Counted from the stretch's first letter, positions 4,887-56,405 are shown. The stretch: 64,000 nt of DNA from Bacilli bacterium (GCA_024408565.1 JAKSUW010000001.1:28498-92497), one strand, 5' to 3'. A program made the numbers and translations. The notes: generated from the sequence alone by a model not told the origin.

Positions 4887-5531
4887 TTACTTTAGCAAAC
4901 TTTTTACTTTCTTTTTGTAATCATCAATGTGATTGAAGAAGATTTCTTTCATTTCGTTCGCGGTTAAAGCGGGGTCTTCTTTCTCTTTTCGGTTATCAAC
5001 ACTAATAAAAGCTTCATAAATCTCTGCGAAGGTTGGTAAAACATCTAAAAGGCGGTTCCGTTTACTTAACCGATTCACCACTTGGAAGGCTTTCATCATC
5101 CGGACACGAATGGGTTCAATATATTCAAAGATACAAGTTTTAAAATAAAGAACATCTTCAGGCGTTTGGTCCGGCAACATTAAATAAGTGCATTTAAACC
5201 GCTTATCGTTCTTTTTAAGAGTGTCCGCTAAATAGTGATCAAGCCGTAATTCAAAATCACCAATATCAGCAATATATAGCATTTCTAAATACGACACTTT
5301 TTCATTTGAAGTACCAACATCTAATAAAGAATATTGTAAAAGTTCATTGAAGTCCTTCCGCATATTCTTAAAACCCATTGAATCGGGCGAATCGTTTAAT
5401 TTCTTACTTTTATCGTTAAATAACTCTTTTCGCGCGGTTAAGGGTAAAACACAATAAAGTTTAAATAAATGTTGAATCATTTCTTCATAGGCGACTTTTC
5501 CACGCCGGAAGATATCAGGGATTTGTTCCAT
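4887..5531 (-). CDS. Hypothetical cytoplasmic protein (214 aa).
   Basis: Intact ORF with host-like codon usage. No motif recognised. Confidence 0.45.
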   Translation of the reverse strand: MEQIPDIFRRGKVAYEEMIQHLFKLYCVLPLTARKELFNDKSKKLNDSPDSMGFKNMRKDFNELLQYSLLDVGTSNEKVSYLEMLYIADIGDFELRLDHYLADTLKKNDKRFKCTYLMLPDQTPEDVLYFKTCIFEYIEPIRVRMMKAFQVVNRLSKRNRLLDVLPTFAEIYEAFISVDNRKEKEDPALTANEMKEIFFNHIDDYKKKVKSLLK

Positions 5532-7424: not shown

Positions 7425-7455
7425 ATCTTGTCCTCCTACTTATAAATACGGAAAA

Positions 7456-9261: not shown

Positions 9262-9597
9262 TTGGTCTCCGACCCGATAAGCCATGTTTTGTCGTGGGTG
9301 ACAATTTATCTAAGCATTGCTTATAGGTCCTCACTTCAGTTCGTGGTTCCTATTTCCCTTACCATTATTTAGGTTTCTCGCTTGTGGGGTTTACCAACGT
9401 TTCACTCTGCTAATTCCTTAGCAGCTCGTCTCTGTGGCACTTTCAGGAGCTTATTGTCCTTTAGGGATGCGGCTCCGCCGTTATACACCGCTATACCTAG
9501 CGTTATTTTTTCCGCTAGCACAATCACTACTAACATCTCAGTTAGTGCGAGCATGGACTTTCCTCTAGTTAACTAGTAGTCACCTAGGTCGGAGTGT
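9262..9597 (-). ncRNA. rnpB: RNase P RNA, type B.
   Basis: The minus strand contains UAGAGGAAAGUCCAUGCUCGCAC (P4 region), which matches B. subtilis rnpB as I remember it. The P1 helix is CUCCGACC (5') paired with GGUCGGAG (3'). A TTGCAA-17-TAATAT promoter sits just upstream and a terminator downstream. Confidence 0.85.
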
Positions 9598-15943: not shown

Positions 15944-16429
15944 ATGAAATTAATAAACATTAAAAAAGAGAAAGATGCCTTAAAGGAATTATCAAAATTA
16001 AAAAGAAGGGAATATGTCTATAGTGAAATTCGAATAGACAACATCCACCTCAAACATTTAAACCTTCTTGTGAAAGACTACATTTTCACTAAAAACGCAA
16101 TATATGTCAGACCGAGTACATTATGGGCAACTATGAAAAGTGGAGGAAGAAATAATTCACATAATTTCCATGCACTGTCTATTGAAGAAGCATTTAAAAC
16201 CCTTAATGCTATAGATCATCCTAAAGAAATATATGAATCCTTAAAAAGAAGCAAAAGATACATTATCGTAACCGATGTTTTGTTTAAGAACAAAATAAAT
16301 ATTATTGTAATAATCGAAAAGGATGTTGCATTAATCAATAAAATAGATGCTAACATTAACAAAATCATTACTATTTATCCAAAAGATAAGATATCTTTGC
16401 TAAACAATAAGTTACTTTACAAAAGATAA
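15944..16429 (+). CDS. Hypothetical protein (161 aa), compositionally foreign (very AT-rich, AGA/AGG and ATA codons).
   Basis: Intact ORF. GC is clearly below that of the flanking genes and Arg is encoded by AGA/AGG, unlike the host genes that use CGN. No Shine-Dalgarno sequence before the ATG. Confidence 0.45.
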   Translation: MKLINIKKEKDALKELSKLKRREYVYSEIRIDNIHLKHLNLLVKDYIFTKNAIYVRPSTLWATMKSGGRNNSHNFHALSIEEAFKTLNAIDHPKEIYESLKRSKRYIIVTDVLFKNKINIIVIIEKDVALINKIDANINKIITIYPKDKISLLNNKLLYKR

Positions 16430-16841: not shown

Positions 16842-16861
16842 AATGATTAAAGTATTAAACT

Positions 16862-16912
16862 TTATATTTATTATATAAATATATTAATAAATTCGCGTCT
16901 TTTAACGCTCTT
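16862..16912 (+). promoter_or_regulatory. Copy C of the conserved ~45-bp promoter-proximal box (…ATAAATATATTAATAAATTCGCGTCTTTTAACGC…), upstream of the 16942 gene.
   Basis: It is the reverse complement of the box found at 38096-38150 and 38672-38725. The CGCGTC core lies about 45 nt upstream of the ATG. A likely -10 TATATAAG is at 16921-16928 and an AGGAGG RBS at 16930-16935. Confidence 0.5.
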
Positions 16913-16941
16913 CCTACATATATATAAGTAGGAGGAATTTT

Positions 16942-17244
16942 ATGGATAAATATCAAAGTGAATTCATGAATGCATTAGAGGTGATGGAGGTTTTAAAAAA
17001 ATGTCCACTAGATATATTTCTTAAGGTGTATCATAAAATTAAAGGAACACCCGGTAAGATAGTAATGAAAAAGAAAACGCACAAAGTTACATTAGAACAA
17101 GTCGTTAATATGATGAACGACGGTTTTAAGAAGATGGACGCGAAAATGGACGCTGGGTTTAAACAAGTTAACACGCGGATTGACGGTATTGAAGCGCGTC
17201 TAGACTATAACGGTCTTAAAAAGTTACCCACCAATTACAAATAA
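16942..17244 (+). CDS. Small coiled-coil protein, paralog of the 38156-38644 protein (the shared C-terminus GFKQVNTRIDGIEARLDY resembles the Mollicutes DUF16 family).
   Basis: 100 aa. The C-terminal 25 aa are near-identical to the C-terminus of the 162-aa repeat protein. Good RBS. Confidence 0.5.
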   Translation: MDKYQSEFMNALEVMEVLKKCPLDIFLKVYHKIKGTPGKIVMKKKTHKVTLEQVVNMMNDGFKKMDAKMDAGFKQVNTRIDGIEARLDYNGLKKLPTNYK

Positions 17245-33361: not shown

Positions 33362-37605
<4,244 letters not shown>

Positions 37606-37614
37606 TAAGTAATA

Positions 37615-38073
37615 TTATACAATATTACTTCCGTCTTCGCTTTTAATTATTTCCAGGACCGTTTGGCCCCCCGCTCCGTTATTTAAAATGACCCCATTTT
37701 TGACTTCTAAAATCGATGGCGTGCCAATAATAAACACATCCATAATATCGGTTTTTCCTAATGTCTCTTCTACGTCACCATCTGGATAAACAACATAGCC
37801 TTCTGCACAAAAATAAATGGTCTTGTTGCCATGTAAGGCATACTCAATCACTTCGTTTTTAATTTTGTGGCATGAACGACAATGAACACCATAGCAATAT
37901 AGGTAATAGTGATCTTCTGGCTGGCTAAATAATGTCTCCCATTTTCGCTCAAGATGTTCGACCTCGCTATAATCGTGAACCGGAATCACCGGATCACTAC
38001 CTCCACCTCCACTATTAGCACACGCAACTAATGTTAGAGGGGTTAATAAAGTTAAAAATATTTTTCGCATCAT
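37615..38073 (-). CDS. Thioredoxin-fold lipoprotein with an unusual CRSC active-site motif.
   Basis: Lipobox LTLVACANSGGGG. …HYYLYCYGVHCRSCHKIK… (strand-CxxC-helix) and …GTPSILEVKNGVI… (cis-Pro-like region) follow the thioredoxin pattern. Confidence 0.45.
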   Translation of the reverse strand: MMRKIFLTLLTPLTLVACANSGGGGSDPVIPVHDYSEVEHLERKWETLFSQPEDHYYLYCYGVHCRSCHKIKNEVIEYALHGNKTIYFCAEGYVVYPDGDVEETLGKTDIMDVFIIGTPSILEVKNGVILNNGAGGQTVLEIIKSEDGSNIV

Positions 38074-38095
38074 TTGTCCTCCTATAAGAACATAC

Positions 38096-38150
38096 GGAAA
38101 AAACGATTAAATGACGCGAATATTTACTTATATTTATTTATAAATATAAT
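38096..38150 (+). promoter_or_regulatory. Copy A of the conserved ~45-bp box (AAAAACGATTAAATGACGCGAATATTTACTTATATTTAT), about 40 nt upstream (gene sense) of the thioredoxin-like lipoprotein gene.
   Basis: About 85-90% identical to copy B at 38672-38725. The GACGCG core is at 38112-38117. Confidence 0.5.
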
Positions 38151-38155
38151 TTTTA

Positions 38156-38644
38156 TTACTTAGCGCTCGCACTAGGGAGGTCTTTAAGACTATTGGCTTT
38201 AACAATATAATCAAGGCGATTTTCTAATTTATCAATTCGGGCGTTAACTTGTTTAAAACCTTTATCAACTGTTTCTGCTAAAACCATAACAGTAGTGGTT
38301 AATTGATCCACGCGCTTACTTAGTTTATCCACTGTACAACTAATTTGATCAACCCGCTTACCGAGCTTATCAACTGTATAACCAATTTGATCAACCCGCT
38401 TACCGAGCTTATCAACTGTATAACCAATTTGATCAACACGCTTGCCTAAGTTATCGACAGTATTGCTTAGTTGATCAACCTTCTCACCTACTTGATTGAG
38501 TGTATATTTTTTCTTTCGTTTCGGATTTTTAGGTTTCACTAGTTTGTCTCCTTTTTCATCATACACCGGAATTTTGTATAGATGGGATAAATTATCGGGA
38601 ATTTTTCTTATTTCTCCGACGGTCATCAATTTTTTCTTTTCCAT
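38156..38644 (-). CDS. Repeat-containing coiled-coil protein (DUF16-like C-terminus), paralog of the 16942 gene.
   Basis: 162 aa. Internal 14-aa tandem repeats (VDKLGKRVDQIGYT ×3 plus degenerate copies). The C-terminus GFKQVNARIDKLENRLDY is shared with the 100-aa paralog. Confidence 0.6.
   Translation of the reverse strand: MEKKKLMTVGEIRKIPDNLSHLYKIPVYDEKGDKLVKPKNPKRKKKYTLNQVGEKVDQLSNTVDNLGKRVDQIGYTVDKLGKRVDQIGYTVDKLGKRVDQISCTVDKLSKRVDQLTTTVMVLAETVDKGFKQVNARIDKLENRLDYIVKANSLKDLPSASAK
38263..38505. repeat. About six tandem 42-bp repeats inside the coding sequence. Units 38347-38388 and 38389-38430 are identical.
   Basis: GATCAACCCGCTTACCGAGCTTATCAACTGTATAACCAATTT ×2 perfect copies, flanked by diverged 42-bp copies. 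In frame (14 aa per unit). Confidence 0.85.
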
Positions 38645-38671
38645 ATCAATACCTCTTATTTATAAATGTGC

Positions 38672-38725
38672 TAAAAACGCATTAATTGACGCGAATATCT
38701 TTTTATATTTATAGAATAAATATAG
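38672..38725 (+). promoter_or_regulatory. Copy B of the conserved box (AAAAACGCATTAATTGACGCGAATATCTTTTTATATTTAT) in the divergent region between the repeat-protein gene and the membrane-protein operon.
   Basis: The GACGCG core is at 38688-38693, about 45 nt upstream (gene sense) of the ATG at 38644. TTGACG…TATATT also reads as a plus-strand promoter toward 38752. Confidence 0.5.
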
Positions 38726-38751
38726 ATTTTAGGGCTATAATAACAATAACG

Positions 38752-39636
38752 ATGTTTAAAGAGAAAGAAACCTTACTCCAAAATATGGCCTTCATGGCAA
38801 TTATTGCGGCGATTGATATTGTTATGGCTATCTTATCCGCGCTTTTTCCGGTGGCGGGTGTTTTTATCATGATTCTGCTACCGTTTTTTAGTGCGGTTGT
38901 GGCGTTATTATGTAAGTGGCGTTATTACCCTATCTACGCGATTGCTGCGATTGGCGTCTCGTTTATTGCAATGGCCTGGAACGCTAGTTACACGGTCTTT
39001 TATTTACTGCCAAGTTTATTAACGGGCTTTCTTTTTGGTGTTAGTTTTCGTAAGAAAATGCACCCTACCTACGCTTTACTCATGACCTCGATTGTTCAAT
39101 GCGCGATGACATTTGTGTTCATTCCGTTAATTGACTTTCTTTACGAAGTGAACACAATTGAACAATTCCTTTTTTGGTTTAAAGTCAGTGATATTCCATA
39201 CATTCATGAGATTGTTTTGCCATTTGTCTATTTCATTAGTTTAGTGCAAATGGTGTTCTCCTATATCGTCCTTACTAATGAGTTAAAAAAGTTCCATTAT
39301 GAGGAAAATTATTTATGGGAAACGTTCTTACCCACCTTTGGTTTTGTTTTCACTTTATTAGTGATTCCTTGTAGCTTTATTAGCACCGCTTTTGCTTACT
39401 TCTTTATGATGCTTGCTCTTTTTATTGGTGTTCATGAATTAGTCCAGATAATTAGTAAAAAAGAAAAAGTGATCGCGATCATTAGTGGAGCCGGAATCTT
39501 CTTATCCATTGTTTTAGTCTTTTCGCTTTACCAAGTGGTTAAAATGCCCCATACTTTACTTTTATTTAACAGCGCGAATCTTATTATCTTTGTTACGCGC
39601 ATCGTATATAATTTAAGAAGAAAACAAATATGTTAG
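38752..39636 (+). CDS. Polytopic membrane protein of unknown function (about 8 TM). The true start is the ATG at 38752, not the ORF-track start at 38686.
   Basis: Hydrophobic-segment pattern. The ORF-track start at 38686 would lie inside the conserved promoter box. Confidence 0.45.
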   Translation: MFKEKETLLQNMAFMAIIAAIDIVMAILSALFPVAGVFIMILLPFFSAVVALLCKWRYYPIYAIAAIGVSFIAMAWNASYTVFYLLPSLLTGFLFGVSFRKKMHPTYALLMTSIVQCAMTFVFIPLIDFLYEVNTIEQFLFWFKVSDIPYIHEIVLPFVYFISLVQMVFSYIVLTNELKKFHYEENYLWETFLPTFGFVFTLLVIPCSFISTAFAYFFMMLALFIGVHELVQIISKKEKVIAIISGAGIFLSIVLVFSLYQVVKMPHTLLLFNSANLIIFVTRIVYNLRRKQIC

Positions 39637-42168: not shown

Positions 42169-42192
42169 AACAAAAAAATTATAGCAATTTTT

Positions 42193-48338: not shown

Positions 48339-48887
48339 TTATTGTATTTCTTTTATCTTTGGATACTTTTGGTTAATAATTTTTAATGGTTTTAAAAGTA
48401 ATAAAGATATAGTAATCGCAATTGCTCCTGATATAAAAATATACGGGGCGTTATAAATAAGCGCAGGTACAAACGCTAAATCATAAATAAAAATACTTGA
48501 TAAGGTCGAAGCGATGTAGCGGAGTAAAACCGCTAATAAAGAAGTGAGGAATAGATAAACATAACTCATTTTGTTCTCCGCTAAAATCTTTTTATTCATA
48601 AGTGAAATAAAAACGACACCACTATAAGCTAACGCGTAATCAAGTGGATAAGTAATAATGCCGTGTCCACTAGTTAAACAAGCAATAAGACCATAAACCA
48701 CGCTACTAGCGATTAAGCTTTTCCACCAACTATGACGAATCGCAATAATAAATAAAGGAACCATTGTAAAAGAAATCGAACCCGCGTCCGAAGCAATATG
48801 AATTTTAAAGACGGGTAAATTTAAAACAATCGCGATGGCACTGAAGATAGCGATTTCGGTAATATCTCGAATTGTGTATTTATTCAT
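48339..48887 (-). CDS. thiT: ECF transporter S component, thiamine-specific (ThiT-like).
   Basis: ~183 aa 6-TM ECF-S-like protein directly downstream of a TPP riboswitch. The true start MNKYT is at 48887; the ORF-track start at 48905 lies inside the riboswitch. Confidence 0.7.
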   Translation of the reverse strand: MNKYTIRDITEIAIFSAIAIVLNLPVFKIHIASDAGSISFTMVPLFIIAIRHSWWKSLIASSVVYGLIACLTSGHGIITYPLDYALAYSGVVFISLMNKKILAENKMSYVYLFLTSLLAVLLRYIASTLSSIFIYDLAFVPALIYNAPYIFISGAIAITISLLLLKPLKIINQKYPKIKEIQ

Positions 48888-48889
48888 TT

Positions 48890-48972
48890 TTCCCTCCGCT
48901 AGCATTACCTAGATCAGGTATGGTCGGCTTCACGCCCTCTCAGCCAGTTTCCTAGCTCCCAAAAAGTATTAT
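48890..48972 (-). promoter_or_regulatory. TPP (thiamine pyrophosphate) riboswitch controlling thiT.
   Basis: The minus strand reads GGGAGCUAGGAAACUGGCUGAGAGGGCGUGAAGCCGACCAUACCUGAUCUAGGUAAUGCUAGCGGAGGGA. It contains CUGAGA and ACCUGAUCUAGGUAAUGCUAGCGGAGGGA (about 25 of 29 nt identical to the THI-box consensus as I recall it). The GGAGGG SD is part of the closing helix. Confidence 0.85.
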
Positions 48973-54961: not shown

Positions 54962-56365
54962 TTATATACTAACAAATAGGTTATTGGTAATTGTAGTAAG
55001 GATAGTTGCTAATGGGAAAGCGATTGCATACGCGGCCGCAACGTCTTCGGTTTTCGCTGCGTTAATTAAGCTCGCTAAAGACGGTGTCGAAGTCATTGAA
55101 CCTGTAATCGCTCCTAAGTTGTTTAATAATGGCAATTTTAAAATCTTTTGGGCAATGATAAAACCAATTAAAGCGGGCAAAATCGTAATCACCGCACCAA
55201 GCACAAAGATATAAACAATGATTAATGGGCCTTGTTCGTTTTGGGAAATCCCTTTAACAATTTGGGCTCCACCGTTAACACCCGCACCAATCAAGAAGAT
55301 TAATAAACCAAGTTCACGGAAAGTCTTATTCGTCTGATCACTCACTTGTAAAGAGACACGACCAAAGTGTCCGAAGTGACCCATTAATAAGCAAGAGAAG
55401 AGGACGCCACCGGTTGTCCCTAAACTAAAGCAAGGGCCGGCAAAGCCTTGCATCGTTAACGGAATTCTAATTAGGCCAACTAAAATACCAGCGATGATGG
55501 CCATAAACATTGGGAATAAGCCATAAGGGTCAAATTTATAAAGTGCCTTCATATCAATGGTACCAACAGTGCGGTCAGTTGAAGCATCGATTTTAATCGC
55601 TGCTCTTTCTTTCGCCATATCCGCATGGAGAATGCGAGGCATTAATTGAATAAATAAGACGACACCGATAACACCAAATGGATAAGTAATGGCATAACCA
55701 ACCGTCACATTCGTGGCTAAAACTGGCGATATTAAACTAGCGGCGTTAAGCGCAGCTGCATACGCTGGAGTAGAAGTCAAAGCGCCAGCAAAAATACCTG
55801 CCGCATAGCCAACACCAATACCTGGTATTGGAGCAATCGCGGCTGCCATTAATTGACCAGCTAAAGATACCACTACCGCAAGGACGATATAGGCTTTCGC
55901 GTTTTGTTGGAAGCTCTTAAAGAATGTTGGACCAGCCATAAAGCCGACCGCACTAATAAAGAGAATTAAGCCAAAGTTTTGTAAGATGTTCGCGTACCAA
56001 TAACCGATATTACCAAGGTCACTCGAAATCGTTGCGGGGTCAATTCTAAAATATTGGAGAATCGGTAAATCCTCCGGAATCATCGTGAAAAGGAAACCAA
56101 ACAAAATAGCCACCAAGAAGGCGCCAGCGGAACCAAGCGAAACATTTTTAATCGAAATTGAACCAAGGAGTTGCCCTAATAAGGCAATCGTGAAAAGGCC
56201 AATAAACATGGCGAGCACTCTATCAATCGCGACCACTTGTTCAGGTGGGGGTGGCGAATCAGGCGAGTCTTGTTTAATGGCAAAGATTGCCCAAGTAACT
56301 AATAAAAGAACGGCTAAAACAGCTAATGTGATTCCAAGAGCCTTTAGACGTTTCTTATTTTTCAT
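54962..56365 (-). CDS. Duplicated-domain permease, possibly of the AAE (aspartate:alanine exchanger / YidE-YbjL-like) family without TrkA-C domains.
   Basis: 467 aa. Two internally repeated halves of about 5-6 TM, each with the Gly-rich …LGSAGAFLVAILFG… / …LGLLIFLIGAGVNGG… motif. Tentative family call. Confidence 0.4.
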   Translation of the reverse strand: MKNKKRLKALGITLAVLAVLLLVTWAIFAIKQDSPDSPPPPEQVVAIDRVLAMFIGLFTIALLGQLLGSISIKNVSLGSAGAFLVAILFGFLFTMIPEDLPILQYFRIDPATISSDLGNIGYWYANILQNFGLILFISAVGFMAGPTFFKSFQQNAKAYIVLAVVVSLAGQLMAAAIAPIPGIGVGYAAGIFAGALTSTPAYAAALNAASLISPVLATNVTVGYAITYPFGVIGVVLFIQLMPRILHADMAKERAAIKIDASTDRTVGTIDMKALYKFDPYGLFPMFMAIIAGILVGLIRIPLTMQGFAGPCFSLGTTGGVLFSCLLMGHFGHFGRVSLQVSDQTNKTFRELGLLIFLIGAGVNGGAQIVKGISQNEQGPLIIVYIFVLGAVITILPALIGFIIAQKILKLPLLNNLGAITGSMTSTPSLASLINAAKTEDVAAAYAIAFPLATILTTITNNLFVSI

Positions 56366-56405
56366 CCTTTATATTATACAATATAAAACGATGAGCTGCT
56401 AAAAG

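Follow-up and report, generated by a model that had tools for sequence, protein, structure and literature searches.

The window analysed here, a stretch of 64,000 nucleotides (nt) from Bacilli bacterium (GCA_024408565.1 JAKSUW010000001.1:28498-92497), contains three copies of a conserved element, each lying a short distance upstream of a gene. We propose, at a probability of about 60%, that the element is a composite promoter of ~75 bp belonging to a DNA-uptake/recombination (competence-type) regulon of an uncultured low-GC Bacilli lineage of the horse gut. A box within the element would occupy the -35 position, and an inverted repeat, or dyad, upstream of the box would bind a co-regulator.

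The element in the window

A sequence-only reading of the window had pointed out a conserved box upstream of three ATGs, and the box is real, as are the distances and orientations given for its copies. The 12-mer TGACGCGAATAT has two exact matches in the 64 kb, at 38112-38123 and 38687-38698, and a third copy with two mismatches on the opposite strand, at 16889-16900. The 12-mer alone was rejected as a significant signal, with 10 matches at up to two mismatches against 7.2 expected by chance. Significance is reached by a longer element only. Aligning the three upstream regions in gene sense, as the sequence-only reading had proposed, gives the common sequence TATATTTAT-N2-3-ATAAATATA-N7-ATTCGCGTC, in which the A/T-rich run forms an inverted repeat with perfect 9-bp arms, a feature that had gone unremarked. 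A 41-nt weight matrix of this element scores the window copies at 47.7-50.7 bits, the rest of the 64 kb below 12 bits, and 20 shuffles at 4.5 bits at most. The distance from element to ATG is 39 nt in copy A, 43 nt in copy B and 42 nt in copy C. Copies A and B are, as claimed, direct repeats on either side of the gene for a repeat protein; they lie 575 bp apart, with 83% identity over an ungapped 40 nt. The modules of the three copies are as follows.

38112..38152, minus strand: element A core, 47.7 bits; box ATTCGCGTCA at 38112-38121, arms at 38129-38137 and 38140-38148, spacer 2 nt
38078..38096, minus strand: element A downstream blocks; -10-like CGTATGTT from 16 nt past the box and AGGAGG from 29 nt, in a register fixed across copies
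38687..38727, minus strand: element B core, 48.7 bits; box ATTCGCGTCA at 38687-38696, arms at 38704-38712 and 38716-38724, spacer 3 nt
38652..38668, minus strand: element B downstream blocks; -10-like CATTTATA and AGAGG
16860..16900, plus strand: element C core, 50.7 bits; arms at 16863-16871 and 16875-16883, box ATTCGCGTCT at 16891-16900
16917..16935, plus strand: element C downstream blocks; CATATATATAAGT and AGGAGG

The AGGAGG of element A probably serves both as start-site region and as ribosome site. The CATTTATA of element B is the most divergent -10-like block among the copies.

Distribution and the proposed regulon of the sister genome

The pattern ATAAATATA-N7-ATTCGCGTC was scanned against one genome per species, covering 185,579 species. 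Twelve exact matches fell in a single genome, JAKSUV, a metagenome-assembled genome (MAG) from horse faeces that is also named 'Bacilli bacterium' and is a sister of the window genome (94-96% identity); seven singletons were scattered over unrelated phyla. The left arm TATATTTAT, which the pattern leaves unspecified, is present in all 12 JAKSUV matches (in one with 1 mismatch) and in none of the seven singletons. Ten matches in metagenomes, none of them with the left arm TATATTTAT, were dismissed as chance, and a scan of viral contigs for the pattern returned no match. Weight-matrix and pattern scans of the JAKSUV loci together bring the number of copies there to at least 14, one of which is without the canonical dyad. 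All are in gene sense with a start codon 39-62 nt away. The genes behind them in JAKSUV are listed below.

comEA (SLBB and HHH_3 domains), then a ComEC-like gene of 678 amino acids (aa) with a metallo-beta-lactamase domain; by Pfam
dprA; by Pfam (PF02481)
gene for a 59-aa membrane protein, then radC (RadC JAB domain and UPF0758_N); by Pfam
gene for a membrane protein with an N-terminal peptidase C39 domain; by Pfam (Peptidase_C39)
gene for a 39-aa peptide, followed by a pair of ABC transporter genes; the first by Pfam (ABC_tran and FtsX), the second by reading
lipoprotein gene, pcrA overlapping with it, and ligA; arranged as in the window, names read from the translations
DUF16-like paralogs, eight in number; N-terminal regions of four kinds and one common C-terminal motif

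Six unrelated transcription units carry the element in JAKSUV, with the DUF16-like paralogs accounting for 8 of the 14 copies. The sequence-only reading had spoken of a small regulon under a shared site; its proposed scan and list of downstream genes uphold the regulon, made up of non-homologous genes, and retire the word small. comEA-comEC, dprA and radC are hallmark members of Firmicutes competence regulons. Such regulons, with these same hallmarks, are summarised in PMC9300618.

Several other features were noticed around the JAKSUV copies and in related loci. In locus L003 (minus strand) the gene for the 39-aa peptide lies ~50-170 nt past the box, directly behind a promoter-type block, and at 33-155 of L018 a 40-aa peptide gene lies behind such a block upstream of dprA, with a hairpin between the two. 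These small peptides may be exported peptides or pheromone-like products. The L008 copy on the minus strand, ending near 5295, keeps ATTCGCGTC and the -10/start block and has ATTAATTATTAAT instead of the usual dyad; another relative (L037) has a related palindrome, TAATAATTAATTATTA, ahead of its dprA. Within the tandem paralog arrays of L001 and L008, several elements have a hairpin-like sequence such as CTCCCCTTGATAAATCAGCGTGAGGGGAG ~10-45 nt ahead of them, which suggests that terminator, promoter and gene were duplicated there as units.

Conservation pattern and downstream half of the proposed promoter

Information per position was computed on the 13 JAKSUV copies that have the dyad. Right-arm positions hold 1.35-1.69 bits each and box positions 1.3-2.4 bits. 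Left-arm positions hold less, 0.7-1.7 bits, as a shift of register by 1 nt smears this arm in the fixed alignment. Values under ~0.7 bits are found in the spacer between the arms, in most of the N7 and at positions +1 to +10 past the box. Comparison of the window with JAKSUV gives a similar distribution. The three orthologous 41-nt cores differ by two bases in total, both in the N7 spacer of element A (locus L007), the cores of element B (L007) and element C (L011) being identical. In copies B and C, 4-5 changes each fall within positions +1 to +30. This mosaic of conservation is the signature of selection on binding positions, and not of recent copying or gene conversion.

The sequence-only reading had taken TT(T/A)AAT, which abuts the box, for a -35-like hexamer. 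That assignment does not hold, as positions +1 to +10 are the least conserved in the other copies; counted from the conserved -10-like block, it is the box itself that falls at the -35 position. A -10-like hexamer had also been called, and a block does lie at a fixed distance, roughly at the place given for it. It reads (C)GTAT(A/G)TA, begins 16-17 nt past the box and usually follows a T- or A-tract. An AGGAGG-like block comes 29-32 nt past the box. Its distance is constant even when the true ribosome site is further on, as in the radC operon of L004 and at dprA of L009 and of L041, where the leader is ~75 nt. Because the distance is fixed where the block is not the ribosome site, we take the block as part of the promoter, most simply as its start region. 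The -10-like block departs from the common form in the core com promoters, with CATATTTT at comEA, TCTATTTA at dprA and CCTATATA at radC.

In the window, housekeeping promoters follow the TGnTATAAT type, have no -35 and are often leaderless (asnS, pcrA and a divergent DUF2232 gene). The -10 of the element differs in kind from the housekeeping -10. Leaderless genes seem to be numerous in the window, with TGnTATAAT-type -10 sequences only 8-11 nt before the ATG at asnS (42169-42190), pcrA (37606-37625), the DUF2232 membrane gene (38736-38751) and gene 54962-56365 (at 56366-56385).

The conserved sequence could instead act as RNA. According to such a reading, transcription starts upstream of the box and the element is a 5' untranslated region device, such as an attenuator, a thermometer or a stabiliser. 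A terminator-like hairpin with a T-run had been flagged in copy B, and by reading of the sequences some copies could pair CCTAC with GTAGG around the ribosome site. The hairpin of copy B, however, is not conserved in other copies, and RNAalifold on 13 copies, from box to ATG, returns a consensus without base pairs and with an energy of 0. Rfam 15 has no match at 37900-38900 even at E<=1, and no plausible promoter is seen upstream of the dyad. We consider an RNA element refuted as the main explanation on these predictions, and give it the smallest chance of all the explanations weighed here.

The element in other species

Homologs of the DUF16-like paralogs are found in few sister MAGs only. 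Contigs of four other species that bear a paralog or a DprA homolog have the same promoter architecture, as the following list shows.

window and JAKSUV: many genes; dyad TATATTTAT-N2-3-ATAAATATA; box ATTCGCGTC(A/T)
JAKSUZ: a DUF16-like gene; dyad as in JAKSUV; box TTAAGTGCGGG
JAKSUY: two DUF16-like genes; extended form of the dyad; box CTCCGTGAGTCA in both copies
JAKSVA: dprA; dyad TACATTTAT-TT-ATAAATGTA; box AAGTGAGCA
Logan assembly SRR28408249: one DUF16-like gene and dprA; dyad as in JAKSUV; box AGTTTGAACA in both copies, TTGACA-like

All four have a related -10 block 16-17 nt past the box, followed by an AGGAG-like block. Judged from these contigs, the dyad and the geometry of the promoter are conserved across species, and the box differs between species while being constant within JAKSUV, JAKSUY and SRR28408249. 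In the dyad of JAKSVA (L036 9907-9926, upstream of dprA) the same position is altered in both arms, T to C in one and A to G in the other. A symmetric, compensatory change of this kind is what a dimeric binding protein predicts, and suggests that one may bind the dyad.

The comparison between species also bears on the possibility that the copies resemble each other through recent copying (by duplication or gene conversion, or as part of a small mobile promoter cassette) and not through co-regulation. The sequence-only reading had named cassette duplication as its one alternative. DUF16-like paralogs do stand behind 8 of the 14 JAKSUV copies, several in tandem arrays with similar flanks, and A and B are direct repeats around one gene. 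Co-duplication of paralogs alone is nevertheless excluded because the element is carried by unrelated transcription units, six copies having unrelated genes behind them. Copying would also have to account for spacers that vary between copies where arms and box do not, for substitutions confined to the variable positions, for an orientation and a start-codon distance that are alike in every copy, and for an architecture that precedes dprA in three species, and DUF16-like genes elsewhere, despite turnover of the box. The lack of any match among viral contigs is a further point against a mobile cassette. Duplication is largely refuted as the sole explanation, and we regard it as very improbable.

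A proposed promoter with a box at -35 and an upstream dyad

In the promoter that we propose, the order of parts in gene sense would be the 9-bp A/T inverted repeat TATATTTAT-N2-3-ATAAATATA, 7 variable nt, and the box ATTCGCGTC(A/T). There would follow a spacer of 16-17 nt, usually with a T- or A-tract in it, the -10-like (T)nC(G)TAT(A/G)TA, and the AGGAGG-like block 29-32 nt past the box, at which transcription would most likely start. Counted from there, the box would lie at about -38 to -30 and be recognised, in the -35 position, by a factor that evolves fast; the most likely candidate is an alternative sigma akin to sigmaH, ComX or sigma-20, which would contact the box through its region 4. 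Further upstream, centred near -57, the dyad would bind a conserved dimeric co-regulator that gates the regulon. Once the factor is active, comEA-comEC, dprA, radC, the lipoprotein(-pcrA-ligA) cluster, the peptide-export genes and the DUF16-like proteins would be co-expressed.

Support for the sigma part of the proposal is indirect. It comes from the two-element architecture with 16-18-nt spacing, the non-housekeeping -10, the cin-box-like T-tract and CG, the precedent of sigma-20, and a sigma-like protein of a relative. This protein (L019 14629-15195) has 199 aa and two domains, and its gene comes after cysS and an rlmB-like methylase gene, which is the position of the sigH cassette in Bacillus and Staphylococcus. 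A word-based search of 5.8 billion proteins with the L019 sigma found only itself and an 87% homolog, an indication that it evolves fast. A tblastn search with it against the window and the loci examined gave no match.

Several observations weigh against the proposal. The window and the JAKSUV loci examined yielded no regulator gene, be it for a sigma, ComK or another factor. None of comG, comF, ssb and coiA was seen in the sequence examined, and because of this the label competence rests on comEA-comEC, dprA and radC. The full element is absent from dprA of two closer relatives (DprA identity 75% and 66%), the 66% relative retaining a recognisable -10/start block; in two further relatives (62% and 56%), dprA has neither the canonical dyad nor the box. 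The -10-like block is weakest at comEA (CATATTTT) and dprA (TCTATTTA), where it could be a poor housekeeping -10 in need of an activator. All positions relative to +1 are inferred, and every genome involved is metagenome-assembled. The recA gene of the window is a further case, having upstream of it a possible relative of the element:

7425..7455, minus strand: recA upstream block; TTTTCCGTATTTATAAGTAGGAGG directly after the cinA stop codon, nearly matching the -10/start block of element A

The region has no dyad, and a box-like GTGCGTCA is 2-3 nt too far upstream. The block was missed by the pattern search, which required a spacing of 16-18 nt. The recA promoter was considered as a member of the regulon; the -10/start block is there, but with the box mis-spaced and the dyad absent its membership is uncertain.

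In the main rival reading no alternative sigma is involved; the dyad and box would both bind one or more factors, such as a ComK-like master regulator or a response regulator, and these would bring the normal RNA polymerase to a TAT(A/G)TA that is weak as a -10. Such activator-dependent promoters for the housekeeping sigma fit in that the -10-like block starts with TAT in nearly all copies, that the box would, in the manner of class II activation, overlap the -35 position, the dyad standing upstream as in class I, and that the box of one species, GTTTGAACA, resembles the housekeeping TTGACA. ComK-type regulons, too, have A/T-rich dyads upstream of com promoters (PMC3536758). The ComK pattern AAAA-N5-TTTT, however, is absent. 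Housekeeping promoters here are TGnTATAAT without a -35, whereas the element is without TG and has at the sixth -10 position usually A, not T. Moreover, a box that is invariant within a genome and rewritten between close species, beside an unchanged dyad, requires a second fast-evolving DNA-binding protein. We consider an activator working with the housekeeping sigma possible but on balance unlikely.

The inverted repeat could, on the other hand, be the operator of a dimeric repressor, and the genes an SOS-like regulon released from repression by damage or stress. In favour are the perfect palindromy of the repeat, with its symmetric change in one species, and the presence in the regulon of genes related to DNA repair (radC, dprA and, downstream, pcrA-ligA). 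The dyad comes before the box at the -35 position and ~45 nt ahead of the -10-like block, a location that suits activation over occlusion. The Gram-positive LexA site is CGAAC-N4-GTTCG, and the dyad does not resemble this site. recA, as described above, is without the dyad, and the JAKSUV copy near 5295 of L008 has the box and the -10 block without a canonical dyad. Repressor control is accordingly judged improbable.

The composite promoter can be taken one step further, to a reading that is speculative and, taken whole, doubtful. The promoter would need two keys, a conserved dimeric regulator on the dyad and a diverging competence sigma whose region 4 co-evolves with the species-private box (ATTCGCGTCA, CTCCGTGAGTCA, AAGTGAGCA, AGTTTGAACA and TTAAGTGCGGG). 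For natural transformation, each species of the lineage, a Mollicutes-like one of the gut, would then use a promoter 'dialect' of its own, and the DUF16-like proteins would be effectors of DNA uptake or recombination.

Comparison with known systems

Late-competence promoters of streptococcal ComX (sigmaX) have at -10 the cin-box TTNCGAATAA, with core TACGAATA (PMC9300618). The resemblance to ComX control lies in one short cis-element that defines a regulon containing comEA-comEC, dprA, radC and species-specific accessory genes, and in a T-rich tract before a CG-containing -10, which in ~60% of the copies here reads T(T)nCGTAT(A/G)TA, 17-25 nt past the box. Of the late com gene set, comEA-comEC, dprA and radC carry the element and cinA-recA of the window does not. 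The -10 here, however, has GTAT where the cin-box has GAAT and degenerates at the core com genes, so that it falls outside the definition of a cin-box. Also, cin-box promoters need no upstream element, whereas here the -35-position box and the 21-bp dyad are the most conserved parts. The CGAATA contained in the core described by the sequence-only reading is on the strand opposite to the genes and is regarded as a coincidence.

In Mycoplasma genitalium and M. pneumoniae, sigma-20 (MG428/MPN626) transcribes recA, ruvAB and several unknown genes from a promoter of two hexamers, with the start just downstream (PMC4446450). Its -35 is TTGTCA in one and TTGGCR in the sister species, and a candidate site precedes ComEC/Rec2 (PMC4446450). 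Among the likenesses, the sigma-20 regulon belongs to a genome-reduced relative of the Bacilli, and the two-element architecture and GTCA are in common. The sequences are different, TTGTCA-N18/19-ATTWAT as against GCGTC(A/T)-N17/18-TAT(A/G)TA, and the element does not fit the sigma-20 consensus. Sigma-20 promoters have no upstream dyad; here recA is without the full element and the regulon is centred on DNA uptake and processing.

The K-box of ComK consists of two AAAA-N5-TTTT boxes spaced 8, 18 or 31 bp (PMC3536758), and in Staphylococcus aureus the SigH sigma and the transcription factor ComK act jointly on com genes (PMC9300618). The likeness is in A/T-rich dyad-type sites upstream of the core promoters of com operons. 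Unlike the K-box, the dyad here is single, has the T-run before the A-run (TTTAT-N-ATAAA) and has no second box. A small two-domain sigma encoded in the cysS-rlmB cassette controls competence genes in several Firmicutes, and a relative here has such a gene at that position. The sigmaH consensus of Bacillus and Listeria is RMAGGRWWW-N11-12-RRMGAAW (PMC4754846). The element does not fit this consensus either: 11-12 nt ahead of its -10-like block, in the stretch where it is least conserved, there is no AGGA-type -35.

Other motifs, compared by eye (LexA/Cheo, CIRCE, PerR/Fur and DegU half-sites), were tried, and none fits. TTAGCAC, which is half of a CIRCE site, occurs in copy B only. The literature searched holds no description of the element, and the box string returned only primer noise. 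The general picture is that cin-box, K-box and sigma-20 promoter are alike in role, one cis-signature tying together genes of DNA uptake and recombination, and that the element, as far as its sequence goes, fails the definition of each. What stands out is a promoter of three modules, a box rewritten between species beside a frozen dyad, and a regulon numerically dominated by DUF16-like proteins.

Genes behind the window elements and neighbouring features

The genes that follow the three window elements are these.

37615..38073, minus strand: lipoprotein gene with a CxxC motif, an open reading frame (ORF) behind element A that overlaps the start of pcrA
33362..37605, minus strand: pcrA (35359-37605) and ligA (33362-35359), ORFs directly downstream of the lipoprotein gene on the same strand
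38156..38644, minus strand: gene for a DUF16-like coiled-coil protein with 42-nt tandem repeats, behind element B
16942..17244, plus strand: gene for a 100-aa paralog, identified by alignment, with the C-terminal motif GFKQVN.RID...RLDY in common, behind element C

The lipoprotein has no Pfam family match. The names pcrA and ligA come from reading the translations. Transcription from element A may read through into both genes; a TATAAT 9 nt ahead of the pcrA start codon gives pcrA a promoter of its own within the 3' end of the lipoprotein gene.

The protein encoded at 38156..38644 matches Pfam DUF16 at 44.2 bits (cut-off 40), among many generic coiled-coil matches, and neither the 100-aa paralog nor three JAKSUV paralogs match this family. 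Its gene has ~5 tandem repeats of 42 nt (14 aa), VDKLGKRVDQIGYT, at 38261-38512. The protein has 162 aa in the window and 106 aa in the JAKSUV ortholog, so the number of repeats varies between genomes that are ~95% identical. For the paralogs, neither a PDB profile search nor PHROGs returned anything beyond generic coiled coils, and the AlphaFold model of the 100-aa paralog (mean predicted local distance difference test score 59) is too poor for a fold search. A helix-turn-helix at the N terminus of the paralogs, or a bZIP-like basic region with a coiled coil, is a lead only, taken from reading the sequence and a sub-threshold Pfam bZIP match.

About 430 nt upstream of element C, at 15944-16429, is the gene for a 161-aa protein with a phage MuF C-terminal domain (29.0 bits against a Pfam threshold of 27.6) and no PHROGs match; a small ferredoxin-like ORF lies between. 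Rfam 15 finds only two RNAs in the window, both ordinary, RNase P RNA class B at 9273-9591 (237.7 bits) and a thiamine pyrophosphate riboswitch at 48874-48972 (62.3 bits). The class B RNase P and the window G+C of 38% fit a low-GC Firmicute or Mollicutes-like organism.

Significance

If the proposal is correct, it amounts to a sequence-level prediction of a coordinated DNA-uptake programme in an uncultured, small-genome lineage of gut Bacilli. With the promoter defined as it is here, regulon members could be listed for any genome of the clade, and reporters could be built. It would also offer a natural experiment in promoter evolution, the dyad being frozen across species and the adjacent box rewritten, yet uniform within those genomes in which several copies were seen. 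Placing the DUF16-like proteins in one regulon with comEA, comEC, dprA and radC makes the question of their function testable. To our knowledge, the function of DUF16 has been unknown since the Mycoplasma pneumoniae genome. If the promoter does need two keys, the regulon, more than half of which consists of DUF16-like proteins, would provide the first functional handle on the DUF16 family.

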